Assembly: GCA_019751815.1 (NCBI GenBank)
Contig: JAIEMW010000001.1
Location: 130,197 to 194,196, forward strand
Source of the DNA: Cyanobacteriota bacterium
GTDB lineage: Bacteria; Cyanobacteriota; Vampirovibrionia; Vampirovibrionales; Vampirovibrionaceae
Direction: 5' to 3'
Length of the DNA: 64,000 nucleotides
The position numbers and the translations under genes are program-made. The notes below the pieces were generated by a model that did not search any database, was not told the origin of the DNA, and saw only the letters and a list, made by a program, of their open reading frames with translations. Positions 3,532-38,998 of this stretch are shown here, one piece after another; positions within the stretch are counted from its first letter, which is position 1; every line of letters starts with the position of its first letter.

Positions 3532-3675
3532 AGAGGGGGCTCCAAGGGGTAATCAATAGAATCTTCAGAATCTACACGCACACACACATCACAGCAGCAT
3601 ATTATCTAACAAATAATAAAATAAAGAGAGGCTTGTTATTGCCAAATTGGGTGAAAGATATGTCGCTGTGTAACG

Positions 3676-6361: not shown

Positions 6362-6430
6362 AATTGGACCCCAACGGTATTTCTCTGATCACCAGAGTAA
6401 CAATAACAGTAACAGGGCCTCCCCTAGGTG

Positions 6431-6456
6431 AACAGTGTTTGTAAACAGTGTTTGTA
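6431..6456. repeat. perfect tandem direct repeat AACAGTGTTTGTA x2 in the mutL upstream region
   Basis: Seen directly; about 70-95 nt upstream of the mutL ATG. Confidence 0.8.
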
Positions 6457-6483
6457 CAAAGAAGCGTTAAAGCAAATGTTCTT

Positions 6484-7068
6484 CTATTCGACTGGCTTTA
6501 AATTGGGTCGTGTCAAAGGCTTTTGTACTTCGGTAGGGGCTTGGGTGGCAGCTTTGGCAGTATTGCGATCAAAAATACGTTGATAGTGTGTTTTTTTGGG
6601 CCGTTTCCTAAACCAGAACTTAAGGGTATTGCTAAACCATCCTTTGGTTCTACCAGTCACCATGGCATCACTGACGAGTAGACCCACAACACAAAGCACA
6701 GCAGGAAAAGGCTTTAAAAGACCAATCAGAACAAATAGGCAGAGGGTGAAACTGCCTACGCTGGCGACAATGAGAGAAAACTCAGAACGGTTACACGGGA
6801 AAAACAGAGTAGCAAGGGCGTTTTCGGGTGTGTTTTCAGACGTCAAATAGTCCATCTCTTCTGGATCTGGTTCTTGATCTGGCTCTCGATCAGCACCGGC
6901 AGCTTCGGATAAAACACTCGCTGAATCTTGCTTTAAGACCATTAACCCCGGGGAATTTTCCGGTATGCTAGGGCTATCTTCTGTCCTAACTTTGGGAGTT
7001 TGAACGGGCAGTGTGACCACGTTTTCCATGGGGGTTTCGGCCTGATTGTCTGGGGTGTTAGAACTCAC
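6484..7068 (-). CDS. hypothetical membrane protein (acidic N-terminus, two TM helices)
   Basis: 194-aa ORF 16 nt downstream of the J-domain gene on the same strand. Hydrophobic stretches FSLIVASVGSFTLCLFVLIGLL and AVLCVVGLLV. Confidence 0.45.
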   Translation of the reverse strand: MSSNTPDNQAETPMENVVTLPVQTPKVRTEDSPSIPENSPGLMVLKQDSASVLSEAAGADREPDQEPDPEEMDYLTSENTPENALATLFFPCNRSEFSLIVASVGSFTLCLFVLIGLLKPFPAVLCVVGLLVSDAMVTGRTKGWFSNTLKFWFRKRPKKTHYQRIFDRNTAKAATQAPTEVQKPLTRPNLKPVE

Positions 7069-7084
7069 AATCCGTGTCCTTTAC

Positions 7085-8029
7085 TTAGTCCACTGAATGG
7101 GACAGTGCTTTTAAACGCTCGTAAAGTTCTTTCTCTTGTTGGCTGAGTGTTTTTGGGATGGCTGCTTGCAATGTCAGGAGAAGGTCTCCAGGACTACCGT
7201 CATTATTAGCCGGCAGGCCTTGCCCTTTTAGCCGGATGGTTTTTCCGCTTTGAGAACCGGCTGGAAGGGTAACCTCGAACCGCCCTGACAGGGTTTGGAT
7301 ACTGACAGTCCCGCCAAGAGCCATATCGGCCACAGGGATGTCCATGGTTGCTTTGAGATTGAGACCGTCTACCTGAAATTTGGGGTGAGCCTGGAACTGT
7401 ACCCGCAAAAATAAGTCTGACCCACCAGGGCCTTCACCCCGAAGACGAATTTTGGCACCATCTTTCACCCCTTTGGGGACTTTGACATTGACTGAACGGC
7501 CAGACTGCTGGAGATGAATGGATTTTTCAACGCCCTTAGCCACATCTTCCAGGGTTAAGGGCAAAATCTGCTCAGGTGCAGTTGCCTGCTGTCTGCTTGC
7601 TTGCTGGCTATTTCCTTGCTGCCTTGCCTGTGTCCCTCTGGGAGGGTAACCTGCCTGCTGAGCGCCAAAGCCTTGGCCAAACATGATGTCAAAAAAATCA
7701 GAAAACCCGCCCATGCCAGATCCTCCAGAAAACATGGCGCCCAGATCCTGCATGTTCACACCTTGTGAAAACCCATCAAACCCTGGAGGAGGCTTGAAAT
7801 CACCGCCGTGTCGCCAGTCAGCCCCAAGGCTGTCGTAGCGTTTACGCTTGTCCTTGTCTGAAAGGACTTCGTAGGCTTCATTAATGTCTTTGAATTTTTC
7901 AGTATGAGCTGGATTCACATCAGGATGATATTGCCGGGCGAGTTTGCGAAAGGCAGACTTAATTTCTTTCTCGCTGGCAGTGCGAGAAACGCCCAGAATT
8001 TGATAATAATCCTTGTATTGAATGCTCAT
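7085..8029 (-). CDS. DnaJ-domain co-chaperone (CbpA-like: J domain plus C-terminal substrate-binding domains, no zinc finger)
   Basis: J domain [32 protein letters not shown] with HPD tripeptide. Gly/Gln-rich linker, then DnaJ C-terminal beta domains. 314 aa. Confidence 0.85.
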
Positions 8030-8237
8030 AGCCGGTCTCTTTCGGGTGCTTTTCTCTATTATATATAGCGAGAAATGGGAGAATGTCGATTTTTAAGCAA
8101 TTTGTAATGGTATTGAGGAAGATTTCTGGATATCCCCATTTGTTGGTAACGATTGCTCTTGCTAGAATGCTACGACGTATTTTGCTTCTAAAGGTGTTTT
8201 TATATTGAAGATATTTTCACGGAAGGGTGTGTGCTGA

Positions 8238-9029
8238 ATGGCCTTTCGTTTGAATCGATTTAGCCCTGTTAGCCCTATTAGCTATGTTAGGCGAACTGCT
8301 TTGCTCATTGGCCTGCTTCTGTTTAGCCTGCCTGCTTTTGCAGAGTCTAATACTGAATCTAAACAGGAGTCGCTTTGGCAAAAAATCAAACACAGCGGCT
8401 TTCAATCTGAACAACCTTCTGAAACAACCCCTGCAACAGGGACACCTCAATCCAATAACCCCAACCCCAATACCACCAATAATCAAGTGAGGCCTGCTCT
8501 TTCTCCAGCGGAAGAATTCCGTCAGACCTACCTTCATAAAGTGGCGGTGATGCAGACCCAGCGGGGTGAAATCGCCTTTAAACTGTTTCCTGATGAGGCC
8601 CCCAAAACAGTCGAAAACTTTGTCTCTCTGGTGAAAAAGGGTTTTTACGATGTCCCTTCGATGAAATTTCACCGCGTTGTTCCTGGTTTTGTGGTACAGA
8701 CTGGCGATCCCACAGGGACGGGCTACGGTGGGTCTGGATCACCGATTCAGCTAGAGGCTAAGAACACACTGAGTCACGATAAAATAGGAATCGTGGCTAT
8801 GGCCCGAGGCCCTGCCCCCAATTCGGCGACCAGTCAGTTTTATATCACCCTGAAACCACAGATTAAACTGGACGGGAAGTATGCAATTTTTGGCAAAGTC
8901 ATTAAAGGCCTGAATGTTTTGGATTTGATTCAGCAAGACGACCGGGTTTACGGGATTCAATTTGTGGATGAAGCACAGATACAACCGGACCAGCCCGTAA
9001 AGAAGAAATCTCGTCTGCATATGTTTTAG
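8238..9029 (+). CDS. cyclophilin-type peptidyl-prolyl cis-trans isomerase, secreted
   Basis: Signal peptide LLIGLLLFSLPAFA, a low-complexity linker, then the cyclophilin core GEIAFKLFPDEAPKTVENFVSLVKKGFYD...FHRVVPGFVVQTGDPTGTGYGG. Confidence 0.88.
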   Translation: MAFRLNRFSPVSPISYVRRTALLIGLLLFSLPAFAESNTESKQESLWQKIKHSGFQSEQPSETTPATGTPQSNNPNPNTTNNQVRPALSPAEEFRQTYLHKVAVMQTQRGEIAFKLFPDEAPKTVENFVSLVKKGFYDVPSMKFHRVVPGFVVQTGDPTGTGYGGSGSPIQLEAKNTLSHDKIGIVAMARGPAPNSATSQFYITLKPQIKLDGKYAIFGKVIKGLNVLDLIQQDDRVYGIQFVDEAQIQPDQPVKKKSRLHMF

Positions 9030-10261: not shown

Positions 10262-11602
10262 CTATAAAAAGCTAGATTGCACCGTTTGTAGGTAAAATCG
10301 AGTCACACTGTTGGGTTCTTGTCTGTCTTTTTCAAGCACCAGAATCCCGCTATTCCCAATTTTATTGAACTGAACATTGGGTGTGAGGTAATCTAGCTCG
10401 TTTTGCTTACTGCCATCGGGTTTGTATAAATTCATCACTGGCTTCCAACTGCCGGTATTGAAATAATAGGCCGATTCATTCATCGGTATCACGGCGGGCT
10501 GGTGCGTGTGCCCAAAGGCAATAAAGCGGTAGCCTTTTTCTGCAGCCAGCTTTCGGGCCATATTTAATTGGTATTTATTGGAATGGGTCCGTTTCACCAA
10601 ACTGGTGATCACAAAGGTGACAATCGGCAGTGCTGCGGGCAAATGGACAAACCAGTTGAGGAGTGTTGCCATAAACCGACGCGGTAAATGAAGCTGTTCT
10701 AGTAAGGGTCGAGTGGTATTGGCATCCAATATTTCTGCCAGCACAGATCGAATAATACTGTCGGCTGTCTCGTGCCAGCGACCTGTGAATAGCTTTTGCA
10801 TGGTTTCTGGATGCCCTTGATAGTGATTTGCAATGGTTTGTATCCACAGGGGTACCAAAGAAAGCGGTCTCAAGTATTCGATATCTCGTAATTCTTGCCT
10901 AACGGTTTCTATCAGTTCGGCGCTATAGCCGGCCTCATTCAGCTTTTGGCTGACCATTTCCACAAAACGGTTGATCAGCAAGATATTTATATAATCACCA
11001 AAGGCATGACGCTGTGTGGCTTGAAAGGCAGTAGGGACTGAATTAAATGGGTCAAAGCGATGCCCATGTTCTGCGTAAAACCCCAATTCTAGAAGCTCAA
11101 AACTGTGACTAAAATGAATTTTTTCGGCCAGTGATTCGGGTAAAATATCGGAGTCACTTTGACAAATCCGCTGTTTAATCAATCCCTGTGCAGCAGGTGA
11201 GTGGGCCAACATGCCGTCGTGATTGCCAATCACAAAATGTAAATGGGTGTGCTTATGTCTTAAAAAGGCGTGGAGCTCGTTAATAATTGATTGATTATTA
11301 TTGATAATGCGTTCGATGGTTTTACATAGAATGGGTTCTACCACCTCATCCGTATGCTCCCAGGGTAGCATTGGGCTAAACCAAGACCCGGTGATATCAA
11401 AGACATCCCCGTTTAATAATAATGTTGTTTCTTGATGACTGCTTTTGGCCTCATGATTGAGTCGGGTTAAAAATTCCCGAAAAATTTTCCGCCGTGGATT
11501 TTCGGTAAATTCCGTGCCGTCGTAGTCATGGTCGTTCAGATGGACGTCACTCACAACCACGAGTTTCAGTTGAGAAGGAATTAAATGGGGAGGATGCGTC
11601 AC
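10262..11602 (-). CDS. calcineurin-like metallophosphoesterase with C-terminal extension
   Basis: Metallophosphoesterase motifs VVVSDVHL, GDVFD, GNHD, GHTHQP; 446 aa. Confidence 0.75.
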   Translation of the reverse strand: MTHPPHLIPSQLKLVVVSDVHLNDHDYDGTEFTENPRRKIFREFLTRLNHEAKSSHQETTLLLNGDVFDITGSWFSPMLPWEHTDEVVEPILCKTIERIINNNQSIINELHAFLRHKHTHLHFVIGNHDGMLAHSPAAQGLIKQRICQSDSDILPESLAEKIHFSHSFELLELGFYAEHGHRFDPFNSVPTAFQATQRHAFGDYINILLINRFVEMVSQKLNEAGYSAELIETVRQELRDIEYLRPLSLVPLWIQTIANHYQGHPETMQKLFTGRWHETADSIIRSVLAEILDANTTRPLLEQLHLPRRFMATLLNWFVHLPAALPIVTFVITSLVKRTHSNKYQLNMARKLAAEKGYRFIAFGHTHQPAVIPMNESAYYFNTGSWKPVMNLYKPDGSKQNELDYLTPNVQFNKIGNSGILVLEKDRQEPNSVTRFYLQTVQSSFL

Positions 11603-24108: not shown

Positions 24109-25236
24109 TTGAGCACGATCGCACATATCGCCTTGAATGGGCACTGGGGATACATAAGGCGTATTGACGGGATGTCGACAATGACACCAATTGGAATGCT
24201 ACCGAATGGGACGGGATTTATGCAGGGCACAGGCCAGTATAATCCCCAACAATCAAGTTTTTCACCGGCGGGTTTTCCTCCACAGGGACTGGCAGTGAAC
24301 GGTCCGGTGGATATTTTGGTGCCAAAACCGATGCCCGGTATGCCGGCCTCATCGATGCCGCCCGTGATGATTCGGCCCAGCCAGCAAGGGGCTTATCCTG
24401 CCAGTGGCTTACCGCCACTGCCAGCACCATCTTACTCAATGGGTCCAGTGAATTACGCACAATCGATTCCAATGGCGGCATTACCGGATATTCCGCCGCC
24501 CCACCTGGTGGCACCCAACTTGTTCAGACCCAACTGGGTGAACGTACCGCCCAACACGGGACGTATTGGGGATATCCAGAATAACTTCTATAACAACCAA
24601 AGCGGTTATCCACCCGTGCCATACACACCTGCTTGGCCGGGATACCCTAATATGGCACCCTATCCGGGGATGCAACCCCCGCAAGGGCCTGCAGCGGCCC
24701 CACTCCCAAAGCCGCCTGAAAATATGCCGCCTGCTCCAGCACAGCCTGCACCGCCGGCCGTGCCAGAACAGAAGGGTCCCTCCTCTACAGCATTCCCTGT
24801 AGGCGGGCTCGATGATGCCACGGTCCGAAGTTTGAACGAACGGCTCAATAATGCCGTGCCTGGCGTCAGAGGCAAGGCGGGGATGGATCTCTTTAACATT
24901 CTCAGTGCCAATCCAGCACTGGCCACAGATCCACAGACCAAACCGTATGTCGATGCTTTCGTCCAAAAAATTATGAGCGATCCAGACTCATTGGTCCGTC
25001 AGTCCATGATTTTGGCCATGGATATGGGCATCATCAAGCAGGTCCCAGATACGGTGATTCAGCGTATGAGACAACTGCAGAGTCAGGAAGGCATGTATGG
25101 GTTGGAAAAAGGCGATATCGCTAAAATTCTCCCAACCTTAAATTTACCAACGGAAAATCAATTAATCCCGCCAGCGGCCAACGCCAATAGCAACGCCCCA
25201 GCGGGACAACGCTTAAATGTGGTTAGCCATAGTTAG
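24109..25236 (+). CDS. proline-rich hypothetical protein with ~150-aa globular C-terminal domain
   Basis: 375-aa ORF, the N-terminal two-thirds Pro/Gly/Met-rich. No recognisable domain; the true start may be downstream (MSTMTPIGM). Confidence 0.4.
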   Translation: MSTIAHIALNGHWGYIRRIDGMSTMTPIGMLPNGTGFMQGTGQYNPQQSSFSPAGFPPQGLAVNGPVDILVPKPMPGMPASSMPPVMIRPSQQGAYPASGLPPLPAPSYSMGPVNYAQSIPMAALPDIPPPHLVAPNLFRPNWVNVPPNTGRIGDIQNNFYNNQSGYPPVPYTPAWPGYPNMAPYPGMQPPQGPAAAPLPKPPENMPPAPAQPAPPAVPEQKGPSSTAFPVGGLDDATVRSLNERLNNAVPGVRGKAGMDLFNILSANPALATDPQTKPYVDAFVQKIMSDPDSLVRQSMILAMDMGIIKQVPDTVIQRMRQLQSQEGMYGLEKGDIAKILPTLNLPTENQLIPPAANANSNAPAGQRLNVVSHS

Positions 25237-25248
25237 GGAAACAGACAA

Positions 25249-25872
25249 ATGGCCTCAAATATTGGAATCAAAATAGCCGGGATCGCTGCCGCTGCAATTG
25301 CAGGGTGGATGGTGAAAGACCGCTATAACGGCAATGCCGGGAAATGGATGCAGCAATATAACGCCCACGAGATGGAGCTAGAATATGACTACATGAAATA
25401 TGGCTTTGGCCATTATTCGGGCCGTCCTGGTATGGACGGCATGGCCCATGGGCTTAAACGACAAAGCTTGTTTGGCCCCGGTGGGGTTCTATCCATCTAC
25501 AGCCGGATTAAGACCCAGGTGGAAGGGTTTGTAAACGACGTTCTCCTGACCCCTGAGGCTGCCATAACGGCCGGTGGTTTATATATGGCCTTGGGTAAAA
25601 AGCTGTTTACGCCCTTTAAGTTTATTGGGCGCGTGATTAAAGATTCTGTCACTAAGCCGACCGGCTTGGTGCGAATGGCCGGTAAGGGGATCATGAGTCT
25701 CTTGGGCAAAATCAAGTTTGGGAATCCAGGGGCACTCATCGCCAAAATGGGCTGGGGAGCCCCCTTGGTAGCCTTAGCACTGGGTTACTTTGCCTACACG
25801 TTCTACCGAGTGAACTCGCACGAGGAACAACATGACTACTGGCGTGACTTTACGTCGGGTGCAAGCCACTAG
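25249..25872 (+). CDS. hypothetical membrane protein
   Basis: 13 nt after the previous gene. N-terminal GIKIAGIAAAAIAGWMV and C-terminal GAPLVALALGYFAYTFY hydrophobic helices. Followed by a rho-independent terminator. Confidence 0.45.
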   Translation: MASNIGIKIAGIAAAAIAGWMVKDRYNGNAGKWMQQYNAHEMELEYDYMKYGFGHYSGRPGMDGMAHGLKRQSLFGPGGVLSIYSRIKTQVEGFVNDVLLTPEAAITAGGLYMALGKKLFTPFKFIGRVIKDSVTKPTGLVRMAGKGIMSLLGKIKFGNPGALIAKMGWGAPLVALALGYFAYTFYRVNSHEEQHDYWRDFTSGASH

Positions 25873-25931: not shown

Positions 25932-25993
25932 GGCTACTGACGCTATTAGTAACAGGCTACTGGACGTCGTTTGTAAATGGGCTACTGGACGTA
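25932..25993. repeat. three spaced copies of GGCTACTG(G)ACG; the last copy overlaps the final codons of the sigma factor gene
   Basis: ggctactgacgc, ggctactggacgtcg, ggctactggacgtag at roughly 23-bp spacing. Confidence 0.7.
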
Positions 25994-26686
25994 GCCCTTA
26001 CGCGTCAATTCCAATTTAATCTTGTCCAGACCAGACTGTACGATGCGTGAAATCCGAGACGGTGAGATATTAAAGGCATCACCAATCTCACGCATTTTCA
26101 TGTTCTTGTAGAAGCGGGCTTCAATGATCTGACGCTCCCGCTCAGGCAGCTTGGTAATGGCTTCGCGGACCAGTTTCGCCATTTCCTTCAATTCACTGCG
26201 TTCTTCCGGCGTATAAGAACCATCCCGAATCTCGTGCGGGTTTTCCGCATCCATCATGCTGTCAACAGACAAAATGGTCTCGTACACAGCTTCACGCACT
26301 TGGGTTTTTTCCGCTTCAAAACCGTCTCCGGCGACACTGCTGTCAGTGGCCGTGGCGTCATCATCTTTGGAACCGTCCATGCTCACCTGTTTGAGGGCAT
26401 ACCATTTGTAACGGTACCGTAATTCGTTGCGGATCGCCCATTTAATGGCCGTGGATAAATAGGTAACGTTATATTCTGTGTTGGGATTGGACGTCAGCAA
26501 GACGTGAACAGCAATCGCCCCGATATTCACCAGTTCGCTGTGATCGATCAAGTGATTGGGCAGCCGGCTGTATTCCACCCGCGCGACCGTTTCAATCAGA
26601 TCAACATAGTCGTTGACCGTGCGCTGGGGTTTATTGGGACTTGATGACGATTTACCGGTAGTCATAGGAACAGTCTGTACGCTCAT
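25982..26686 (-). CDS. RNA polymerase sigma factor, sigma-70 family group 3 (FliA/SigF-like)
   Basis: ATG at 26684-26686 with GGAG 7 nt upstream. Region 2 ELVNIGAIAVHVLL...YLSTAIKWAIRNELRYR; region 4 LPERERQIIEARFYKNMKMREIGDAFNISPSRISRIVQSGLDKIK. Confidence 0.85.
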   Translation of the reverse strand: MSVQTVPMTTGKSSSSPNKPQRTVNDYVDLIETVARVEYSRLPNHLIDHSELVNIGAIAVHVLLTSNPNTEYNVTYLSTAIKWAIRNELRYRYKWYALKQVSMDGSKDDDATATDSSVAGDGFEAEKTQVREAVYETILSVDSMMDAENPHEIRDGSYTPEERSELKEMAKLVREAITKLPERERQIIEARFYKNMKMREIGDAFNISPSRISRIVQSGLDKIKLELTRKGYVQ

Positions 26687-26803
26687 TCGTAACTCCACTC
26701 TAAAAATTGTACACTGAAAGGCCGAAAAGCCTAAAATGTAATCGAAACCGTGCTTAGGGCACACACACCCGTGTGATCATATAACCTCCATCCTCGTGAC
26801 TCA

Positions 26804-28239: not shown

Positions 28240-28611
28240 AAAATATAACAAGAAGAAAAAGCAGAGGCTCCGGCCAAGAATCGCGTTTGAGTTGAGCGTC
28301 TTCACGATAGATGGGAACCGGAGCCAGTTACGTGTGTTAGTATCCACCGATCATTGCTGATCGAATTACCACCCGCTTCATGTGTTGTATTTACCAAACA
28401 TCGTTAGTTTAGTGGGTTTCGAGGTGAGTTTCGACCTGTGTTTGGAGGAAATACGGCGTGTATCCCCCTCTTTTTCTCATCTATATAGAGGATATTTGGG
28501 GTTTTTGATTCAAGCCCTTCAGTAGCACAAAAAACGCCCAAAACACGTTTATGCATGTATCGATATTGATCGAGATTTTTTTACGGGGACACAGACAAGG
28601 ACACGGGCGAT

Positions 28612-30357
28612 TTGGCGAACGCTGGACAACCCATACCAGGGCAATTTATGCCGGGGCAGCCTAATTCGGGAATGCCTTTTTATCCTGGACAAATGCCGAT
28701 GCCTCCTGGTGGCTATATGCAACCCGGTGCTGTAGCCTTAGATCCTCGTTTGCAGCAACAGTCTAGACTCGCAGCACAGCAAGCGCTGGCGAATGGAACG
28801 CCACCTGATAAGTTTGAATCTCCCTTTCCATCACCGTCACAAATGCTGATGGGTGGAGCTGCCGGTATCGGGCTTGCAGAACTGATTCGACTACCGTTTA
28901 ACCGCGATAACCACGCGTTAATTCGAGCTGCCCAGTGGTTAGATCATTTGCCTGGTATCCGTTGGGCGAACAAACATATTGCCAGTGGTCAGTCCTGGTT
29001 GCTCAAGTCAACCAACAATAGTCCGTGGACCAAGCAGTTTTTGTATCAAATACCACCAGAAGCTGCCGAAAAACTGGCGATTCAGCAAACTGTGCAGGGC
29101 TTCATCAAACAGTTACCCGCAGACCTTTTGAAGCAACCCGCCGTGGGCCCCCTGCAAAAGGCAGCGACCAAGGAACAATTGGATACGGCTCTGGTTATTC
29201 TGCGGCGTCATTTTTCACGCGCGCAAGAGCCTGCTATTGTCGATTCGCTTCTGAAGAAAACCACCGTTTCTCCCAGAATCGCCACATCACTGGCCGGGAA
29301 AACCATTCCACAAGCAGAACGGGTGATAGCGGGTCTTAAAAAGCTGACTCCATCTGAGTTGGAAGCCCTGCAAGGACTTCTGAAAACGGCATCTCGCCAT
29401 GCTGACAAAGCGGCAGAAGTGGCCATGAAGCAGGCCAGTAAAAAGCTTCCCAAGCAAGTCTTGGGACTGTCCAAGCGAATTGAAGGTCTGAACAACCACT
29501 TCTTCCCGGTCTACCGGGAACAATTCCACTTGATGGATCAGCTGACCCGTACCACGGCGAAAGGGGCGAAACCGATTGGGCCTATTGGTCGTTTCTTCGC
29601 GGGCACGATGAACTATATCCGCCGGATCTTTGGAGGGGACAGTCTCACCAGCTATGTGGGATCGTCGGCTAAAAAAGCCGCCGGGCAAGAAGGGATTCTC
29701 GGTCGTCTGATGGGGCCCTTTATGGTAGGGGCTCTGGCAATTGGACAATCGTTTAGTGAGGCACACAAAGCAGAAAAAGGCGAAAAGGTAAAAACCTTCT
29801 TCCATGATTTTCTGGGCACCGGGATTGGCAGTTTTGTCGGCTGGGAGATTGGTCGCAGTTTGTTAAACCGCACCGGGGTCGTCTCCAAACTGATGGGCAG
29901 TTTTGGCAGTAAATTTATCCGCGTTTTACCTCGCTTTATTCCAGGCATTGGTGGTTGGGGCTTCACCCTAGCCGGTGCCGCCGTCGAACTTCTCTCCATG
30001 TTCGTGATTGCCATTCCCTTTCAGCGTGCCGGTGAGTGGATTGCCCACCGACTTTTTGGGAAACCCAACAAGGTCCTCGAAGAGGACCTTAAAGAAAAAG
30101 GCATCGTGCTGGCAAAACCATTGCCCGCTGGGGGCGATCAGCAGCAGCGACTCCGTCGGCCAAGTCGTTTTGAAGGTTTCCATCAGGCCAGAGCGCATCA
30201 TGTGCAAGCGCCTTCCGCAACACCGAATATTTCCTATTCACTCTCACCAGAGGATATTGCCCGCAGTGAGGCAACGGCCTCTGCCCAGCAGCAAGAAAAA
30301 GCCCTGTTGGATCAGATCAAAAACTTTGGCTCCCCGATGCAGGCATATCACGACTAA
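28612..30357 (+). CDS. hypothetical protein: Pro/Gln-rich N-terminus, helical middle, Gly-zipper-rich hydrophobic C-terminal region
   Basis: 581-aa ORF (TTG at 28612, alternative ATG at 28648). The C-terminus has repeated GxxxG/small-xxx-small segments (GPFMVGALAIGQSF, GTGIGSFVGWEIG, IPGIGGWGFTLAGAAV). Confidence 0.45.
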   Translation: MANAGQPIPGQFMPGQPNSGMPFYPGQMPMPPGGYMQPGAVALDPRLQQQSRLAAQQALANGTPPDKFESPFPSPSQMLMGGAAGIGLAELIRLPFNRDNHALIRAAQWLDHLPGIRWANKHIASGQSWLLKSTNNSPWTKQFLYQIPPEAAEKLAIQQTVQGFIKQLPADLLKQPAVGPLQKAATKEQLDTALVILRRHFSRAQEPAIVDSLLKKTTVSPRIATSLAGKTIPQAERVIAGLKKLTPSELEALQGLLKTASRHADKAAEVAMKQASKKLPKQVLGLSKRIEGLNNHFFPVYREQFHLMDQLTRTTAKGAKPIGPIGRFFAGTMNYIRRIFGGDSLTSYVGSSAKKAAGQEGILGRLMGPFMVGALAIGQSFSEAHKAEKGEKVKTFFHDFLGTGIGSFVGWEIGRSLLNRTGVVSKLMGSFGSKFIRVLPRFIPGIGGWGFTLAGAAVELLSMFVIAIPFQRAGEWIAHRLFGKPNKVLEEDLKEKGIVLAKPLPAGGDQQQRLRRPSRFEGFHQARAHHVQAPSATPNISYSLSPEDIARSEATASAQQQEKALLDQIKNFGSPMQAYHD

Positions 30358-30521
30358 AAACCAAAATTTTCTTTAAGGAATCTGGGTTTTCGCCAGTGAC
30401 GGTTTATATTAAGAGTAGCAATTGAGTTGTCTGTTCAATTAAATACTATTTTTAAAAAGTCACTTGGGGATTTTTGCCGTTTCCATCTTGTTCATTAAGA
30501 TAATTGCGTGAGGATGATTCG

Positions 30522-31166
30522 ATGTCTGTTGGGTTGAACGCAGCGTATGCGTTTGGAATGCCTTTGTCTGCTGGGAATAACCAAAATAATATTTCTGGCG
30601 GTGTTAGCGGTGTTAATAATACAGGTAATGTCAGTACTCAGCCCAATCAGGCTGATAATCGTGCTGAAAACCCGAAAAAGTCTGAACCCAAAATTGCTGT
30701 AACTGCTGGCCATGGCAGTGGATGCGGACACTGTGTTGGGATGAATTCTGGCCTGGTATCACCAGCAAAACTAGAAACCCTGAAAGCAGAGAGATACAGT
30801 GCGATTATGTCTCATGAACAAGCCCACGCCAGTGCCGCTGGTGGCTTTGGGGGTGGTATTCATATTGATTATGACAGCAACGGGATAGCCATTGGTGGGC
30901 ATGTGCCCATTAGTATCCCTGGGCTTGATAGGGCCAATCCAGAGACCTCTTTGGCGGCATACCACACGATTCGATCCGCGGCGCTGGCCCCCAGTGATCC
31001 GTCAGGACAGGATATGAGTGTGGCAGCCCGTGCCGATAGCCTTATTGGCAGAGCACAGGAAGCGATTAGCCAGAAAGCAGACAAAGCACTAAAACCTGAT
31101 AAGCCAGACAGACCTGATAACAGGCATAAACCCGCGACTAAAAAGCCTTTTTCAGTAACGGCCTAA
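30522..31166 (+). CDS. hypothetical protein with HExxH motif (possible zinc metallopeptidase-like)
   Basis: ATG with GAGGA SD 7 nt upstream. Gly/Asn-rich N-terminus, CGHC pair, SHEQAHASAAGGFGGG (HExxH). No confident family assignment. Confidence 0.45.
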   Translation: MSVGLNAAYAFGMPLSAGNNQNNISGGVSGVNNTGNVSTQPNQADNRAENPKKSEPKIAVTAGHGSGCGHCVGMNSGLVSPAKLETLKAERYSAIMSHEQAHASAAGGFGGGIHIDYDSNGIAIGGHVPISIPGLDRANPETSLAAYHTIRSAALAPSDPSGQDMSVAARADSLIGRAQEAISQKADKALKPDKPDRPDNRHKPATKKPFSVTA

Positions 31167-31189
31167 ATAAATCGCTTGAAACAGTGAGG

Positions 31190-31582
31190 CTACTCGGCGC
31201 TGGTCGTTTTGGGATCCAATACCGCGCGTGTGTCCACAGGCTTCTTTAAATTGGCTTTCCAGCTCGTGGCTGAGTTTTTTTGTTCAAAAAAGCGATCAAA
31301 GTTTTTCTGGCAGGCCCGGTCCACCTGGTGCAAGTTTAATGGCTTCATCAACTCAATCAGTGCTTTCAATTCTGTTGCACGTTGGTTGGAGGCAATTTTG
31401 AGGGGGCTGGTCTTTGGCTTCGGTGCTGACATATTACCCGGCAGGTTAGAAGCGTCATTGACAGCGGCAAATACTGTAGAACCCAACAAAGACAACATCA
31501 TGAAAGACAAGACCAGGGCCAAAGCTAGAGCACCCAGATAATTTGAGCATACTTTTTTGATAGCGATGGGTTTCATCATCAT
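31190..31582 (-). CDS. small secreted hypothetical protein
   Basis: 130 aa. Signal peptide LGALALALVLSFMMLSLLGSTVFA, then a hydrophilic domain. Confidence 0.45.
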   Translation of the reverse strand: MMMKPIAIKKVCSNYLGALALALVLSFMMLSLLGSTVFAAVNDASNLPGNMSAPKPKTSPLKIASNQRATELKALIELMKPLNLHQVDRACQKNFDRFFEQKNSATSWKANLKKPVDTRAVLDPKTTSAE

Positions 31583-31825
31583 GAATCTCAGCCAATCGAT
31601 TTTCTGAAGGGAATTAATAGAAAAAAAACGAGTGCGTCGGTAAAATTGCCCGTTTGAAACAAACAGTAATAGACTGTATATTTCTATACCGATACGAACA
31701 AGTATTACGATACTACAACCTTCACGACGTTGTCTGGGCAGAAGGTTCCCTGTTGAGCAGGATTGTTACAAATAAGCGTAATCACAGAATAGCGATGTGA
31801 TATGGGCCCGATTCGGGAACCCTTG

Positions 31826-31833
31826 CTATAATT
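31826..31833 (+). promoter_or_regulatory. candidate extended -10 element (TGcTATAAT) for the NarL-type regulator gene
   Basis: tgctataat about 60 nt upstream of the ATG at 31893; no convincing -35. Confidence 0.3.
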
Positions 31834-31892
31834 GGGAAAAGCGCTTAAATGCGGCGGCCTTAAAATAGCTGCTTTGGTAAAGGATTTTTACA

Positions 31893-33736: not shown

Positions 33737-34744
33737 TTGGAGTCTCTCATTCCCACGATGCCAAACCCACACTCGATATCAACGGCGTTGACTTCGTCAA
33801 CCGAAGAAAGTTCTGACATGACGGTGACCCTCCCTCTGAGAAAGTCGGAGCTTACCCTTCAACAAAAAATCGTCTCGATTCGACAGGCCTTTGACTTCTG
33901 GTGCCGTTATACAAGCAAAGGCTTTCCCTGGTCTTTATTGTCCGTTTTAAGCCCCAAAGAGAGAGCCACCGAAAAAGCCTACTCTTATCAAGCGTGGACT
34001 TTTTCGATGGATAAAAAAACCGGCACCGAACTCGAAACGCTGATCGCATTTTGGCAGTGGCTGTATGAGAAACATTGCCTGCCAGATTACCGAATAAACG
34101 ACTCCAATTTTGCCGATTTAGCCGTTTTAAAGGTATTAGACGTGGGCACCAAAAACGGCTTGCTGCCGCTTGCCGGTGGTATTTTTTGGACGATGAACCA
34201 GGATCATTTAATAAACATTGAGCTTGAAGGCATAGAAATCGATCCCTACCGGCTCGTATGGGATGCATTTTCTCAGAAACCGTTAACACGTCAGCAGCAG
34301 GCACTGCGATGGTTCCAGGAATTTTCGGCAGTAAATACGCAATCTCCATTGTGTAGGTTAACGTTCCATACTGGCAATATTCTAAAATTTTCGCCCTCTC
34401 AAGCGCCGACTTCTCAGACAAAACAATATCCCTTCATCACCCATATTCTCCCCTTTGTTTTGCCAGAACCTTGTTTGGCCTGGGGGCTCCCGCTGTCCTT
34501 GTTTCAGCCAGAAGCTATCTTCCAAAAATTATTGTCCTTATTGTCACCGGAAGGCTGTTTAATCATTGTCAATCAGGGTGAGATTGAAACCCAAGCCCAA
34601 GAAGCGATTTTTCAGCACGTGAAACGGATTTCTTCCCGTGAATTTGAATATCATTTTTTAGGCCCTGTGCCCGATCCATTGTTGCTGTGGCAATATCCAC
34701 GTTTTGCCTGGAAAATTAACTTAATTGATAATGAGCGTGAGTGA
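33737..34744 (+). CDS. hypothetical protein with a degenerate class I SAM-methyltransferase-like fold
   Basis: VLDVGTKNG (motif I-like, with G-x-G altered), GIEID (acidic post-I), LLSPEGCLIIVN (motif III-like). Confidence 0.4.
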   Translation: MESLIPTMPNPHSISTALTSSTEESSDMTVTLPLRKSELTLQQKIVSIRQAFDFWCRYTSKGFPWSLLSVLSPKERATEKAYSYQAWTFSMDKKTGTELETLIAFWQWLYEKHCLPDYRINDSNFADLAVLKVLDVGTKNGLLPLAGGIFWTMNQDHLINIELEGIEIDPYRLVWDAFSQKPLTRQQQALRWFQEFSAVNTQSPLCRLTFHTGNILKFSPSQAPTSQTKQYPFITHILPFVLPEPCLAWGLPLSLFQPEAIFQKLLSLLSPEGCLIIVNQGEIETQAQEAIFQHVKRISSREFEYHFLGPVPDPLLLWQYPRFAWKINLIDNERE

Positions 34745-34755
34745 AATATGATGTC

Positions 34756-35532
34756 ATGACAAAAAAACCGATCGTGGTCTGGGTGGCCAGTACAAACCCT
34801 CATAAATTAAACGAGCTTCAGGTTATCTTGCGACTGCTAAAACTTGAGCAAGAAATGGTGTTCAATATCCCGGATAATTTGGTGGATGTGCCTGAAACGG
34901 GCCTGACTTTTCTGGACAATGCCAGAATCAAAGCCGAACATTTTGTTGAGAGATTGAGAAATATAAACGCTGATAATCATGACTGGATTCTGGCGGAAGA
35001 CTCCGGGCTGATTGTTCCTGCACTGAATGATATGTACGGATATGATCCCTTTCCGGGTGTTTTTTCTAACCGTTGGATGACCCCCACTATTCGGGATGAG
35101 TTGCTCACAGCACCAATGAACTCAGACATTCCCTCCTATATTGATTCACCAAAAATAACGGATATAGATAAAAACTGCGGTATATTGGCCTTGTTAAACC
35201 ATAAAATGCTTAATGGTAAAGACGTGAGTCGAGAAGCTCGCTATGCTTGCGCTATGTCACTCTGGAATCTGAAGACTGAAATCGCGACCGCATACGGGGA
35301 AATGTCTTTGCAGGTTCGAGAGCTAAACGAGCATACTTTTTTAAATGAGTCTGCACAAGCAGAAAAAAATGATCTCCCCCGTGGCTTTGGGTATGATCCC
35401 ATTATGCTTTCTGTGCCCAGTATGCGGTGCTTAAGCCAGATGAGTATTGAGGAAAAATCTGCCATCAGCCACCGGGCCAATGCATTTAGGCAACTCATCG
35501 CCTTAACTAAACGGGGCCCCGCCCATAATTAA
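34756..35532 (+). CDS. rdgB: non-canonical purine NTP pyrophosphatase (Ham1/RdgB family) with an internal insertion
   Basis: VWVASTNPHKLNELQ (N-terminal K motif), AEDSGL, PRGFGYDPIM, EEKSAISHRANAFRQL. About 250 aa versus the typical ~200. Confidence 0.75.
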   Translation: MTKKPIVVWVASTNPHKLNELQVILRLLKLEQEMVFNIPDNLVDVPETGLTFLDNARIKAEHFVERLRNINADNHDWILAEDSGLIVPALNDMYGYDPFPGVFSNRWMTPTIRDELLTAPMNSDIPSYIDSPKITDIDKNCGILALLNHKMLNGKDVSREARYACAMSLWNLKTEIATAYGEMSLQVRELNEHTFLNESAQAEKNDLPRGFGYDPIMLSVPSMRCLSQMSIEEKSAISHRANAFRQLIALTKRGPAHN

Positions 35533-36246
35533 ATAACTTTGGGTGTTATGCGTTAAATAGGCTTTACGACCGTATTTTTGAGAGATACTGTCTGTGTATC
35601 CACCGCCATTGACTTCGGGGTATACCACAAGCGTGTTAATTTTTAGTCTCACAATGGGTGCGGTGATATCATCACCGGTGACTCCGTTCGTTGGGTTCCC
35701 GGTCGTATTGTAGGCTTGAAAACAAGCATTTGACCGAGTTGCCGAATCATACACCGTTGAAGAAAAATTGCCACAGCGGACTTTAAACGTGACCGCATTG
35801 GCTGGTCCGATGGAAAAGGCGTCGCGTCGGTTTAAATTGCTCTGAGCTTTGGAGGGAGAACTTCCGGGACAATTTGTATTGGTGGTGATTGCGGGATTCA
35901 CATTGTTCCATGAGCAGCGTGTGATGGTTTTGTTGGTATCATCAACAATATACTTAACCGTGTGTAGCTGAGACCCTCCTAAAAAATCATTGGTATCTAA
36001 CACCACGATATCGCTGTCATTGATCGAACTGGTTTTGATATTTCGGGCATACTGAAAATCTTGACGCATCCAATCCAATACATTGGAAAGAATGGTCTGA
36101 GAGTAAGTATACACCCGATCTGTATTTTGACCGTTCAGCATTCCGCTGGCAACAGAAGAGACAGCGGCAGACAGGGCAAGAAACATCACCAGGGTCACGG
36201 CAATCTCTATGAGACTAAAACCAGTTCTTCGGGGCTGAGCCAACAC
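35503..36246 (-). CDS. prepilin-type N-terminal cleavage/methylation domain protein (type IV pilin-like), paralog B2
   Basis: Leader MLAQPRRTG | FSLIEIAVTLV, with Gly-1 and Glu+5. Its 3' end overlaps rdgB convergently by 30 nt. Confidence 0.8.
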   Translation of the reverse strand: MLAQPRRTGFSLIEIAVTLVMFLALSAAVSSVASGMLNGQNTDRVYTYSQTILSNVLDWMRQDFQYARNIKTSSINDSDIVVLDTNDFLGGSQLHTVKYIVDDTNKTITRCSWNNVNPAITTNTNCPGSSPSKAQSNLNRRDAFSIGPANAVTFKVRCGNFSSTVYDSATRSNACFQAYNTTGNPTNGVTGDDITAPIVRLKINTLVVYPEVNGGGYTDSISQKYGRKAYLTHNTQSYLIMGGAPFS

Positions 36247-36271: not shown

Positions 36272-37060
36272 TTAACCGTAAGGTGTATCCGCTAATATGG
36301 CATAGCTTTCAGAGGCATGAGTGTAATAAGGAATTCTTCGATACTTTTGAGACACAGTATCGGTGTATCTATTGGTGCGGTTGTTAACCAGGGGGTAAAC
36401 GACAATCGTATTAATTTGCAGGCGCGATATGGCGTTAGTGGGATCATAAGCACCCCACCAATTATTACCCAGTTTAGCTTCTCCATTAGTGTTATAGCCG
36501 TTAAAGCAGTAACCATTTTTCGCGGCTGTATTGTAATTCGATGTTGAAAAACGTCCACATCGAACCCTAAATTGGACCATATTGCTAGGCCCGATACTCA
36601 ACGGACGCTGTGCCATCGCACTGAGACTGGGATTATATGCGCCAAAAGCGTTTACGCTTGTATAACGCCAGTTTTCGGTATATTCCCAACGGGTAAGATA
36701 TTTTGTCGCGCCCCAATCATAGACGGAATAAATAACAATTCTCTCTGGTGTTGATCCCCCGGAAGAATTGGGGATACTGGTTTTAAGCATGATCTGCTCA
36801 TAAGAGCGTGTTTGCCAAGGTATAAAAACATCTTTGGCATACTGAAAGTCAAGCCGCATTTGATCGAGCATATTATTCATTATGACTTGGTTGTAGCTAT
36901 AAACCTGATCTGTCGTTTTGTTGGCGAGCATGGTGGTAATTGCGCTGGCAACAGTGGCTGACATAATGGTGAACAGCACCAAGCCAACCGCCATCTCCAT
37001 CAGAGAGAAGCCTCTACTCAGTTGCAGGGCTCTTGAGTTGGCATCATTGATTTGAGACAT
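36272..37060 (-). CDS. prepilin-type N-terminal cleavage/methylation domain protein, paralog B1
   Basis: ...QLSRG | FSLMEMAVGLVLF. Shares blocks with the downstream gene (DQMRLDFQYAKD / FRVRCGRFS / INTIVVYP). Confidence 0.8.
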   Translation of the reverse strand: MSQINDANSRALQLSRGFSLMEMAVGLVLFTIMSATVASAITTMLANKTTDQVYSYNQVIMNNMLDQMRLDFQYAKDVFIPWQTRSYEQIMLKTSIPNSSGGSTPERIVIYSVYDWGATKYLTRWEYTENWRYTSVNAFGAYNPSLSAMAQRPLSIGPSNMVQFRVRCGRFSTSNYNTAAKNGYCFNGYNTNGEAKLGNNWWGAYDPTNAISRLQINTIVVYPLVNNRTNRYTDTVSQKYRRIPYYTHASESYAILADTPYG

Positions 37061-37161
37061 AAGTTTAAAAAGCTTTCTATTCTGGTCACTTCAATAACTG
37101 CCTCTTGGGCTGTCTCTAGTTACTAATTATAGGAGGTTATTTGCAGTGTTAGTGTTGGACT

Positions 37162-37845
37162 TTATAGGGCCGCTGCTGTATTGGAAAATGCCGCGGCATC
37201 AACTGTAGCGAATCGATCACCAAGCTTGGAAATAGGGAGATCCCAATCCGCTGCGGCTAAGCACGACACCTTATATTTACCGAACCCACCTGTACATTTG
37301 GGTTTGGGAGGTTGGCTGGGCCCCACTTCTACGATTCGTTGTAAATTGGCAGGACCGGCCAGTGTAAACGAGTTTGCAACAGCCTCCGAGTTAATATTGG
37401 TTGCATTCACACCCCCGTTGGAGAGTAGGTTCATTTTGGCTATATTTCGTCCCCCAACAGTGACGGTAATTTCTTTGGTGTCAGGATTGGTCACTGAGAG
37501 GACTAAATTACTGGATGAAGAACCTGAAACCATATCCAAAACAGCATTTAAATCACCGTTGGTAAAATCAACGGTCTGCTTGTCCAAGGTGTTGGATACT
37601 TGAGAAAACGCTTTTTCCAATGCCCCTTGTGCCACTGCTGCCGCAAAACCATTGGCTTTAGGGATACCCATTGACATTTTACTGTAACTTACGCCCATGA
37701 GAACAGCCACAAGTACTGAAGTTACGGCAATCTCTAACATCGTGAGGCCTCGTTCGGCTTTGGGGGCAATGAATGCCTGTTTTATTTTTCTGCTGATGTT
37801 AGCAATCATAAACTTTAATCCCTCTAATTCTCTCTGCCGAATCAA
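37162..37845 (-). CDS. prepilin-type N-terminal cleavage/methylation domain protein, paralog A2 (C-terminal Cys pair)
   Basis: ...KAERG | LTMLEIAVTSVLVAV. C-terminus KCTGGFGKYKVSC, a possible disulfide loop. GAGGGA SD before the ATG. Confidence 0.75.
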   Translation of the reverse strand: MIRQRELEGLKFMIANISRKIKQAFIAPKAERGLTMLEIAVTSVLVAVLMGVSYSKMSMGIPKANGFAAAVAQGALEKAFSQVSNTLDKQTVDFTNGDLNAVLDMVSGSSSSNLVLSVTNPDTKEITVTVGGRNIAKMNLLSNGGVNATNINSEAVANSFTLAGPANLQRIVEVGPSQPPKPKCTGGFGKYKVSCLAAADWDLPISKLGDRFATVDAAAFSNTAAAL

Positions 37846-38022
37846 AGTTGACTATCACAGTGTTACTTTTTACGGCTTACTTCTTATGGGGTGGCATCGA
37901 CAAAAAAACGCGTCTCTAAACCGAGCTCCTTCATTTTGTTACAAATGTATAAGTAATCCCTCTCTGTCTTCGCTTCTGCTGGTCTTTCGATAGGACCTTG
38001 GCACGGGTTAGTTTTCGTCTGA

Positions 38023-38059
38023 GCAAAAAAGCCTTTCAAAAACTTGAAAGGCTTTTTTA
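38023..38059 (-). terminator. rho-independent terminator (bidirectional hairpin) after the first pilin-like gene
   Basis: aaaaaaGCCTTTCAAaaacTTGAAAGGCtttttt: perfect 10-11-bp stem, 4-nt loop, flanking A and T runs. Confidence 0.8.
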
Positions 38060-38111
38060 GAAAAATGATTAGAAACAATCTTCTCTGAAGAGGGTCTCCT
38101 TGCGTTTAAGT

Positions 38112-38702
38112 TTAAGCAGGAGGCAAAGCACTAGCCCAGGCGGCAGCAGTGCTTTCAGGAAAGCGCCCGCCCATGGGAACTGGATCAGGGATCGCTCTGC
38201 CCCGTCTACCGCGTCCTCCTGTCGGTCCTATTTCGATAATCCGGGCAAGCGTTGCATCGGGTGTAATGGTAAATTGTGATGTGAGAGAGGGATCGATACC
38301 CAGGGCTTTAATGCTACCGTTGGGTTGAATTTGATATGACGCTAAGCGAGGGAAGCCGGGAGCACTTAAAACAAATTTTTTATTGGTAACATCCGTCACA
38401 GAGAGTACCAAGTTGCCACTCGAAGAGCTGGATACCAGATCGAGTGCGGTATTGAGGTCATTAAAAGTTAGCCCGTCAGGTCCATTAACCGGTTTATCCA
38501 GCGTATTGGTAACCTTGATAATGGCCTGCTCCACAGCCGCTTGGGTGGTGGCTGCCATCAGTCCGTTGGCTTTGGTGGGTGCTTGGTTATACTTAGCGTA
38601 AGCAAAGGCAGAAAGTGTTGCTACGAGAACCATACAAACAGCCATTTCGACCATAGAAAATCCCAAGGTCTTAAGCCGTGTCGGTGTAAAGGCATTGGGC
38701 AT
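38112..38702 (-). CDS. prepilin-type N-terminal cleavage/methylation domain protein, paralog A1 (candidate major pilin)
   Basis: MPNAFTPTRLKTLG | FSMVEMAVCMVLV, a 14-aa leader from the ATG. An upstream TTG at 38720 is unlikely to be the start. Followed directly by the strong terminator. Confidence 0.75.
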   Translation of the reverse strand: MPNAFTPTRLKTLGFSMVEMAVCMVLVATLSAFAYAKYNQAPTKANGLMAATTQAAVEQAIIKVTNTLDKPVNGPDGLTFNDLNTALDLVSSSSSGNLVLSVTDVTNKKFVLSAPGFPRLASYQIQPNGSIKALGIDPSLTSQFTITPDATLARIIEIGPTGGRGRRGRAIPDPVPMGGRFPESTAAAWASALPPA

Positions 38703-38998
38703 CGAAATTAATTTATTCAAATGTTAACTCCTTCTTAGAAAAATCTCTCAGATCTCTAAAATCTCTCGTGGTGTTTTTTCCTCTCGGTGGATTGATATCA
38801 CCAAACAGCAATTAAGGTCTTATCGACACCTTCCTGAAAATCTAAACAGAAACAACATAATTTGTTACATTGCGTGTTTGAGACCTCCCTTTGGTGAGGC
38901 CCTTCTGTGATCCCGCACGGAATCCGTCTGTATCCGGTGTTAAAATGAAGATTCAGGCCCTTTTTCAAAGAGAGTTATTGTAGAGAGTCACTCCTTCT

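Follow-up and report, generated by a model that had tools for sequence, protein, structure and literature searches.

Closest Described Proteins and the Locus Under Study

The closest described relatives of the locus considered here are the SprA-related proteins (Pfam PF12118), which NCBI names the putative metalloprotease CJM1_0395 family. Within this family, 95% of the members carry an HExxH motif (PMC3650047), and the published zincin-like assignment is based on a weak FFAS match (score -7.7, 11% identity; PMC3650047). The sole experimental property known for a member comes from Campylobacter jejuni only: CJM1_0395 was detected in the supernatants of the wild type and was absent from those of flgG mutants in two strains, that is, its appearance there is flagellum-dependent (PMC5223770), and the member released in this way affects the interaction with host cells (PMC5223770). 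In the present work, we analyzed three adjacent genes (hereafter gene 1, gene 2, and gene 3) embedded in a stretch of 64 kb (64,000 nucleotides, nt) of contig JAIEMW010000001.1 from assembly GCA_019751815.1; this whole stretch is referred to as the window. Gene 2 is a new member of the above known but uncharacterized family, gene 1 defines a family without a name, and the three genes represent a loose and partly conserved neighborhood centered on gene 2, not a dedicated three-gene machine.

The annotated contig, which is part of a metagenome-assembled genome, is 1.09 Mb long and is labeled "Cyanobacteria bacterium"; its source is an uncultured bacterium of the Vampirovibrionales (Melainabacteria), and the three genes are native to its chromosome. 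The cultured representative of this order, Vampirovibrio chlorellavorus, has a flagellum (PMC4451040), and the order includes a predator of eukaryotic algae possessing flagella and a type IV secretion system (PMC4451040). The scans of two collections, the former of genome contigs and the latter of metagenome contigs, retrieved one locus each. The window was compared with related loci or contigs (L001–L017), and the counts of gene 1 loci reported below cover those with readable flanks. The nearest relative is L001, whose contig is labeled "uncultured Vampirovibrionales bacterium".

The list of open reading frames (ORFs) and the NCBI annotation agree on the existence and the positions of the three genes proposed in a first-pass annotation made from the sequence alone, and all three can be regarded as real genes; their lack of a characterized function was also borne out, the NCBI product being "hypothetical protein" in each case. 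Gene 1 (K2X01_00740; 28612..30357, + strand) encodes 581 residues from a TTG start, in agreement with NCBI, with an alternative ATG start at 28639. Gene 2 (K2X01_00745; 30522..31166, + strand) is annotated by NCBI as a protein of 214 residues starting from the ATG at 30522, which is preceded by GAGGA; the longest form of the ORF (30504-31166, + strand) starts from the TTG at 30504 and encodes 220 residues. Counting from the annotated ATG, genes 1 and 2 are separated by 164 nt, and not by the 146 nt given previously. Lastly, gene 3 (K2X01_00750; 31190..31582, - strand) encodes a small exported or anchored protein of 130 residues and is convergent with gene 2, the two stop codons being 23 nt apart.

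Gene 2 Encodes an SprA-Related Protein

At the level of sequence, the membership of gene 2 in PF12118 is established: its product scores 41.1 bits against a cut-off of 27.3 (E-value 1.8e-10), the match covering only positions 187-294 of the 335 in the profile, its C-terminal third, and PF12118 was recognized in 62/62 of the homologs found. The earlier statement that none of the three proteins matches a family is, thus, wrong for gene 2. Gene 2 shares with the family the invariant HExxH motif, a G(H/E)VP block, and an AALAPxDPSGQD block; its product is also, like the other members, small, disordered at the N-terminus, and devoid of a Sec signal. Unlike the rest of the family, the Vampirovibrionia clade has its own N-terminal motifs and often a CxxC pair, and the clade of the window differs further in a C-terminal ending of the type PF[STQ][LV]x[AV]. 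At the C-terminus of gene 2 (31152-31166), this ending takes its place among those of the SprA homologs of the clade, such as FSVTA, FSLSA, and FQLAV.

The HExxH motif of gene 2 is HEQAH (30813..30827, + strand); its first residue is residue 104 of the 220-residue ORF, corresponding to H98 of the 214-residue protein, and in the model, it lies in a helix spanning residues 81-109. Its H, E, and H are invariant in the alignment of the 62 homologs, so the motif noticed at first sight is not a chance occurrence. The residues that do not vary in the alignment are H98, E99, A101, H102, G107, G126, V128, A154, A156, P157, S161, D164, and A168. Position 127 is occupied by H in 53/62 homologs and by E in 7/62; together with D164, present in all 62, it represents a candidate for the third metal ligand. 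The invariant Glu of HExxH makes a predicted catalytic metal site in gene 2 plausible.

The AlphaFold model of gene 2 consists of one long HExxH-bearing helix, a beta-hairpin, and two more helices, preceded by 75 residues in a disordered state. The SprA-related core (30759..31091, + strand; residues 80-190 of 214), compact and about 110 residues long, is modeled with a predicted local distance difference test (pLDDT) score of 91-98. The N-terminal 60 residues include 11 N and 7 G, and the Gly/Asn-rich N-terminus, the CGHC pair, and the HEQAH motif of the first description are all present. The CGHC pair (30723..30734, + strand; residue 74 of the 220-residue ORF) falls in a region with a pLDDT of 55-72. 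Its two Cys are found in 37/62 and 36/62 homologs, as a CxxC and not specifically as CGHC. A reading of this pair similar to that of protein disulfide isomerases was discarded: the homologs vary (CLMC, CMGC, CANC, and others), 25/62 lack it, and the region is modeled with low confidence.

With zincins, the HExxH metallopeptidases that comprise gluzincins, aspzincins, and minigluzincins, gene 2 has in common the location of HExxH on an alpha-helix, the invariant Glu, and the conserved downstream H/E and D. Unlike zincins, the model has no beta-sheet before the active-site helix, and its hairpin comes after it; the combination of a mixed beta-sheet, an active-site helix, and a lower subdomain that makes up the zincin fold was not found. 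Moreover, a structure search gave no detectable similarity between the predicted fold and solved zincins, and a PDB sequence-profile search gave no relative with a solved structure. The model, therefore, does not support gene 2 as a member of the zincin fold.

These data might also be read as those of a protein that is not a protease, in which a small novel fold would bear a metal site with a structural or regulatory role, formed by HExxH, the H/E, and the D and possibly also by the CxxC; the protein would then act as a binding or regulatory factor. The hairpin that follows the HExxH helix with no sheet before it, the weakness of the published zincin assignment (FFAS -7.7 at 11% identity; PMC3650047), and the upstream CxxC of 37/62 homologs all point in this direction. 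Nevertheless, we consider it quite unlikely, as the Glu of HExxH, conserved in 62/62, is expected of a catalytic base and is not needed for a purely structural site, and the CxxC is missing in 25/62 homologs.

As to localization, the hydropathy profile of gene 2 revealed no hydrophobic N-terminal segment, and there is no Sec signal. The only studied member of its family is CJM1_0395 of C. jejuni (CJJ81176_0441), and, by analogy with the flagellum-dependent release of this protein into the supernatant, a secreted role for gene 2 is plausible.

Gene 1 Defines a Lineage-Restricted All-Alpha Family

An exhaustive profile search with gene 1 retrieved 139 representatives (clusters at 50% identity) at E<=1e-3, 96 of which at E<=1e-10. 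All the members with a source name belong to Vampirovibrio sp. or Candidatus Melainabacteria, and all of them are annotated as "hypothetical". A word-indexed search gave three homologs, and its repetition with a 24-sequence profile gave the same three, low-complexity words probably filling the candidates. No Pfam or NCBIfam match was obtained for the protein of the window, for 24 family members, or for 10 isolated C-terminal core domains, and no PDB relative was obtained either by sequence profile or by structural comparison. Gene 1 defines an unnamed, lineage-restricted family, so far found in Vampirovibrionia only and without a structural relative.

The AlphaFold2 model of gene 1, based on an alignment of 98 sequences, is entirely helical, with disordered P/Q-rich tails (pLDDT 78.2; predicted template modeling score 0.70). 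The members of the family have a P/Q-rich start, after which come a DP...AQQSLANPNGGD motif and a Gly/Ala-rich helix that leads into LDxLPG. A variable helical stretch separates these elements from the conserved core, beyond which lie a P/Q-rich tail and a [FY]SLSPxxI motif. In the window, residues 1-45 (28612..28746, + strand) form a disordered P/Q/M-rich tail with a pLDDT <50; residues 1-80 include 16 P, 11 Q, 9 G, and 8 M, in line with the composition first described, and P/Q-rich N-termini are recurrent in the family, many of whose members begin with 'MGQ'. According to the general rule for N-myristoylation motifs, the 'MGQ' and 'MGIS' N-termini were rejected as candidates for this modification: the proteins of the window have no Gly2, and the consensus of the gene 1 family has Pro at position 6. 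The conserved Gly/Ala-rich helix (MLMGGAAGIGLAELIRLPF; residues 75-96; 28834..28899, + strand) is modeled with a pLDDT of 92-97; its G85 is kept in 84/98 members, and its hydrophobicity is modest.

The conserved core (residues 320-485; 29569..30066, + strand) is a long Gly-rich helix bundle made up of helices 324-341, 362-386, 392-421, 423-438, and 453-482, and its motifs are GPxGR...RIFxGE, GEKxKTFFHDFLGxGIGNFxGWExGR, and TLxGxxxExxAMFxxxxxFQKxGExxxHxxFGKP. The C-terminal region had been depicted as full of GxxxG; this was not confirmed, since GxxxG occurs five times in gene 1 compared to a mean of 5.2 in 5000 shuffles, which is no enrichment. What stands of the proposal is a single glycine zipper conserved in the family, G402-x3-G406-x3-G410-x3-G414 (GTGIGSFVGWEIG; 29815..29853, + strand): among the 98 members, G402 is present in 82, G or A at position 406 in 75, G410 in 94, and G414 in 76. 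The helix harboring it (392-421) is amphipathic and has conserved charged residues. Three acidic residues, E412, E459, and E475, are conserved, with buried Glu in the C-terminal helix bundle.

Transmembrane glycine-zipper proteins and alpha-helical pore formers are the comparison suggested by the first-pass annotation. Like the former, gene 1 has one conserved GxxxGxxxGxxxG helix; unlike glycine-zipper membrane or pore proteins, its zipper helix is amphipathic and its GxxxG is not enriched. The Gly-rich transmembrane bundles of the Tim17/PRAT and FtsX/MacB types were compared with gene 1 as well, and significance was not reached, either in structure or in sequence, for Tim17, Tim22, Tim23, Mgr2, NDUFA11, and OEP16 or for FtsX, MacB, and YbbP. 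No pore-forming toxin or translocator appeared among the structural matches. Together with the marginal hydrophobicity (the family-averaged Kyte-Doolittle peaks are 1.2-1.4, which is marginal for membrane spans), this leaves the idea of a pore-forming or membrane-remodeling protein unsupported. The bundle is probably embedded in the membrane or associated with it. The less likely alternative is a soluble fold whose hydrophobic core is buried. Two observations speak against a membrane location: on the Hessa scale, residues 450-468 alone come near transmembrane values (dG +1.8 kcal/mol), and 21/98 family members have no Hessa window below +4.

A search for motifs in the family pointed out YSLSPEDI at the C-terminus of gene 1 (30235..30258, + strand); the pattern [FYLIM]x[LIVMF][ST]Pxx[IVLM] occurs near the C-terminus in 33/98 members. 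The C-terminal module also stands alone in an ORF of 176 residues (L008:3125-3655) located downstream of a gene 1 homolog. As a side observation, the C-terminal [FY]S[LI]SPxxI of the gene 1 family (30235-30258 in the window) resembles the PF[STQ][LV]x[AV] ending of the SprA clade.

Gene 3 Encodes a Small Exported or Anchored Protein

The N-terminus of gene 3 (residues 1-39; 31466..31582, - strand), as read from the sequence, begins with the basic n-region MMMKPIAIKK..., continues with YLGALALALVLSFMMLSLLGSTVF, a hydrophobic stretch of 24 residues, and ends with a small-x-small site, VFA|AV. The hydrophobic segment reaches a Kyte-Doolittle maximum of 2.33 and a Hessa dG of -1.8, in agreement with the signal peptide previously proposed. 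Since the basic n-region, the 24-residue hydrophobic stretch, and VFA|AV occur together, as in Sec-exported proteins, the product of gene 3 is predicted to be either exported by Sec or anchored uncleaved, the h-region being long.

No Pfam or NCBIfam match was found for gene 3. Its conserved motif, ELKALIELMKPLNLHQVDRACQKNFDRFFEQKN (residues 71-103; 31274..31372, - strand), is the sole block aligning the sequences from the window, L001, L007, and L006, and the central motif of the protein (ELKALIELMKPLNLHQVDRACQKNFDRFFEQK) is found again in small ORFs that have a signal sequence and lie immediately downstream of SprA genes. The homolog in L001 is 73% identical; that in L007 is the top non-self match of a jack-knifed hidden Markov model (HMM) among 2013 ORFs, with 16.5 bits. 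The candidate in L006 is the second match of the same model, weaker (7.3 bits), and a probable homolog.

Linkage of the Three Genes in Related Loci

The first-pass annotation had suggested that the three genes could form a secreted effector or membrane-active module. The reading of a three-gene module turned out to be weakly supported. Besides the window, the full trio was seen in L001 alone, which is 88% identical; the gene set is not kept together in distant relatives. The loss of the trio in relatives, named by the first-pass annotation as an outcome against its own reading, is thus largely observed. Furthermore, the three genes are not all co-directional, genes 1 and 2 lying 164 nt apart on the + strand and gene 3 on the - strand; gene 3 is convergent and, therefore, shares no transcript with gene 2. 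The spacer between genes 1 and 2 (30358..30521; 164 nt, GC content 0.34) is 80% identical to that of L001, and no terminator-like site was found in it on the + strand. What can be retained of the secreted component is the export signal of gene 3 and, by way of C. jejuni CJM1_0395, the plausible secretion of gene 2, but not the trio as a unit.

A pairwise linkage is, in turn, visible around gene 2. An SprA gene directly follows gene 1 in three of the seven gene 1 loci (the window, L001, and L011/L012), and of the seven SprA loci, three have an adjoining gene 1 homolog and four an adjoining gene 3-like ORF. In L011/L012, the adjacency of genes 1 and 2 is maintained at 33% gene 1 identity, with a different downstream flank and with three genes inserted after RecR, upstream of gene 1. 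This pattern is compatible with a loose functional link and with inherited synteny alike.

According to the scenario that we tentatively favor, at a little less than an even chance, the product of gene 2 would be a metal-dependent, hydrolase-like protein, with the invariant HExxH and the conserved H/E127 and D164 as candidate ligands, and would be exported from the cytoplasm by a route other than Sec; its Campylobacter relative appears to use the flagellar export apparatus in this way. The Gly-rich bundle of gene 1 would reside in or on the cytoplasmic membrane, and gene 1 might be expressed together with gene 2 in the sub-lineage of the window, as its partner at the membrane (an anchor, a gate, or a substrate). 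The small product of gene 3, which is exported by Sec or anchored and recurs next to SprA genes, would represent a periplasmic partner of gene 2. Gene models, families, conservation, predicted folds, and neighborhood statistics are the observations from which we infer metal binding, catalysis, the export route, membrane insertion, and any physical interaction among the products.

Several data weigh against this scenario. The gene 1 homologs of L002, L009, L008, and L017 (4/7 lineages) have no SprA neighbor, and the SprA genes of L006, L007, L013/14, and L015/16 (4/7) have no nearby gene 1 homolog. YbaB and RecR are present at every locus that retains the pair of genes 1 and 2; therefore, inherited synteny accounts for the adjacency as well as function does. 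The orientation of gene 3, opposite to gene 2, has to be added. Concerning the flagellar route, no flagellar gene was found in the 64-kb window, nor was any sigma-28-type promoter (TAAA-N14-17-CCGATA) found in it, and the sigma factor encoded near the cluster was rejected as FliA, its best specific match being FliA/WhiG with 70 bits versus a cut-off of 189.6.

Part of these data would be expected if no functional link existed at all, i.e., if the three genes belonged to a syntenic block (from DnaB, L25, YbaB, and RecR onward) inherited in one branch of the Vampirovibrionales, with gene 1 acting alone as a lineage-specific envelope or housekeeping protein and genes 2 and 3 having unrelated roles. 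The pair occurs only alongside YbaB and RecR; the SprA gene of L015/16 has the same DnaB/L25 surroundings, with gene 1 missing; the distant gene 1 homolog of L017 stands alone between relA and unrelated genes; those of L002 and L009 pair with a convergent HIRAN-domain gene instead; and the context of the window is a housekeeping one. Two facts do not fit, however: the adjacency of genes 1 and 2 has survived at 33% identity despite rearranged flanks on both sides, and a gene 3-like ORF is found beside SprA in three independent lineages with differing upstream genes. On the whole, we regard the absence of any link as unlikely, although it is a serious competitor.

If the link between genes 1 and 2 is functional, the locus would offer the first handle on two families. 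The former, the SprA-related/CJM1_0395 family, is widespread and HExxH-bearing, without a solved structure or a known activity, and has a predicted fold unlike those of known zincins; the latter, that of gene 1, is well folded and so far confined to Vampirovibrionia, the non-photosynthetic lineage that is sister to cyanobacteria and counts an algal predator among its members. If the link is one of synteny only, these would be ordinary hypothetical genes, and the value of the analysis would lie in defining the gene 1 family and in flagging the conserved non-coding region upstream of it.

Some other arrangements were observed at the related loci. The convergent HIRAN-domain genes that follow the gene 1 homologs lie at 10332-11219 (- strand) in L002 and at 5714-6481 (- strand) in L009, on two independent contigs of one sub-clade. 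In L013/L014, a signal-bearing M48 peptidase (HEIAH; 6340-7845, + strand) precedes the SprA-related gene (8001-8459, + strand) in the same orientation, in the place of gene 1; a kinship between gene 1 and such positional equivalents was discarded, the gene 1 HMM matching neither this peptidase nor the other large neighbors. In L006, a Vampirovibrio sp. contig, a divergent SprA paralog (5296-5868, + strand; 190 residues, HEASH, ending in FSVMA; HMM E-value 8e-17) is placed in tandem directly upstream of the SprA gene (6001-6528, + strand).

The Conserved Region Between recR and Gene 1

The most unexpected observation at the locus is the conservation of the recR-gene 1 intergenic region (28240..28611; 372 nt, GC content 0.44), an unusually conserved stretch of non-coding DNA. 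It is 93% identical to that of L001 (gaps excluded), whereas the identity is lower for RecR (86%), for gene 1 (85%), and for the spacers between genes 1 and 2 (80%) and between genes 2 and 3 (44%); the comparison covers two sequences, those of the window and L001. The fold of the minus strand surpasses each of 100 shuffles (z-score -3.09), and that of the plus strand has a z-score of +0.42. No Rfam match was found for the region. Small ORFs were rejected as the cause of the conservation, no frame being preserved between the window and L001, the latter also harboring tandem duplications of 24 nt and 9 nt inside the region. Positions 28260-28611 are, then, a candidate for either a structured non-coding RNA or a long regulatory leader.

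This element also enters a more daring scenario, in which genes 1 and 2, joined in some lineages by gene 3, would constitute an export/effector pair specific to Vampirovibrionia: the Gly-zipper membrane bundle of gene 1, of a new kind and with its buried acidic residues, would be the conduit, gate, or anchor of a metallo-hydrolase that has a novel non-zincin fold, is exported without Sec, and acts in envelope remodeling or in the attack on prey, and the upstream non-coding element would control gene 1. We consider this very unlikely.

The intergenic region on the other side of the cluster, between gene 3 and the gene for a NarL-type response regulator (31583..31892), is 310 nt long, with a GC content of 0.41; two sigma-70-like sites on the + strand (31618-31682) point at the regulator gene. 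Both flanking regions are richer in AT, as first reported, than the window (GC content 0.49) and gene 1 (0.53).

Genomic Setting

The trio lies in an ordinary portion of the chromosome and not in an island, with YbaB, RecR, HemB, and the response regulator as housekeeping neighbors. The window further contains two-component systems, a divergent sigma factor, Ham1, prepilin-like genes, a UvrD-type helicase, NAD biosynthesis genes, and IF-2, and the GC content of the trio region is native. No match was found in the PADLOC (defense) or PHROGs (phage) libraries, and nothing meaningful was retrieved by tblastn against plasmids or by PDB sequence profiles.

This setting bears on the possibility, raised by the first-pass annotation, of a secreted effector or membrane-active module. 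In its fullest form, the module would be directed against prey, and gene 1 would be a secreted alpha-helical pore former or translocator with a hydrophobic Gly-zipper hairpin concealed in a soluble bundle, gene 2 a co-delivered metalloprotease effector, and gene 3 a chaperone or an immunity protein. Genes 1 and 2 both lack a Sec signal and have disordered N-termini, and the helices of gene 1 are marginally hydrophobic, as in proteins switching from a soluble to a membrane state; moreover, the algal predator that belongs to the order has both flagella and a type IV secretion system (PMC4451040), and the family of gene 2 includes a flagellum-dependently released member that affects host-cell interaction (PMC5223770). 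Conversely, the trio is not conserved, its setting is a housekeeping one with a native GC content, and the defense and phage libraries gave no matches; we judge such a module to be the most improbable of the readings considered here.

Among the genes of the surroundings, that for the divergent alternative sigma factor (25982-26764, - strand; 260 residues, sigma-70 family) is located two genes upstream of the cluster. Positions 36272-38720 (- strand) are occupied by three consecutive ORFs (262, 227, and 202 residues). The prepilin-type N-terminal methylation motifs of two of them suggest a cluster for pseudopilins or type IV pilins; the middle ORF (37162-37845) gave no family match. ORFs without Pfam or NCBIfam matches are also present near the cluster at 24109-25872 (+ strand), 33737-34744 (+ strand), and 35503-36246 (- strand), with the length of these products given as 207-375 residues.

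Terminal Motifs in Proteins of Related Vampirovibrionia

In the related loci of Vampirovibrionia, many proteins that are otherwise unrelated start with M-x-[IL]-[SG]-[PLI] and have, 8-45 residues on, a motif of the [PV]x[FY][GAS]G type; examples are MNISPYRPIAPPQFG, MMISPVSHSTPPRFG, MDISFLPNRPAVSFG, and ...AVQFAG. They are encoded in L011 (7026-7766, 6523-6849, and 15165-15626 on the - strand and 3224-3658 on the + strand), L015 (1587-3779, + strand), L009 (3231-3575, + strand, and 5714-6481, - strand), L002 (10332-11219, - strand), and L008 (289-813, - strand), and they include HIRAN-domain proteins and an AMP-binding enzyme. The SprA homologs start in a similar way (MGISLN, MGLSIGN, and MFHPVN). 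Judging from these sequences, the shared start may represent a lineage-specific N-terminal tag.

Lastly, the neighboring proteins encoded in L015 (4368-6800, - strand) and L011 (349-870, - strand) are extremely rich in Gly and Phe, with GGLFGQGGG repeats and FG-rich tails; some of their N-terminal segments may be LysM-like, as judged by eye only.

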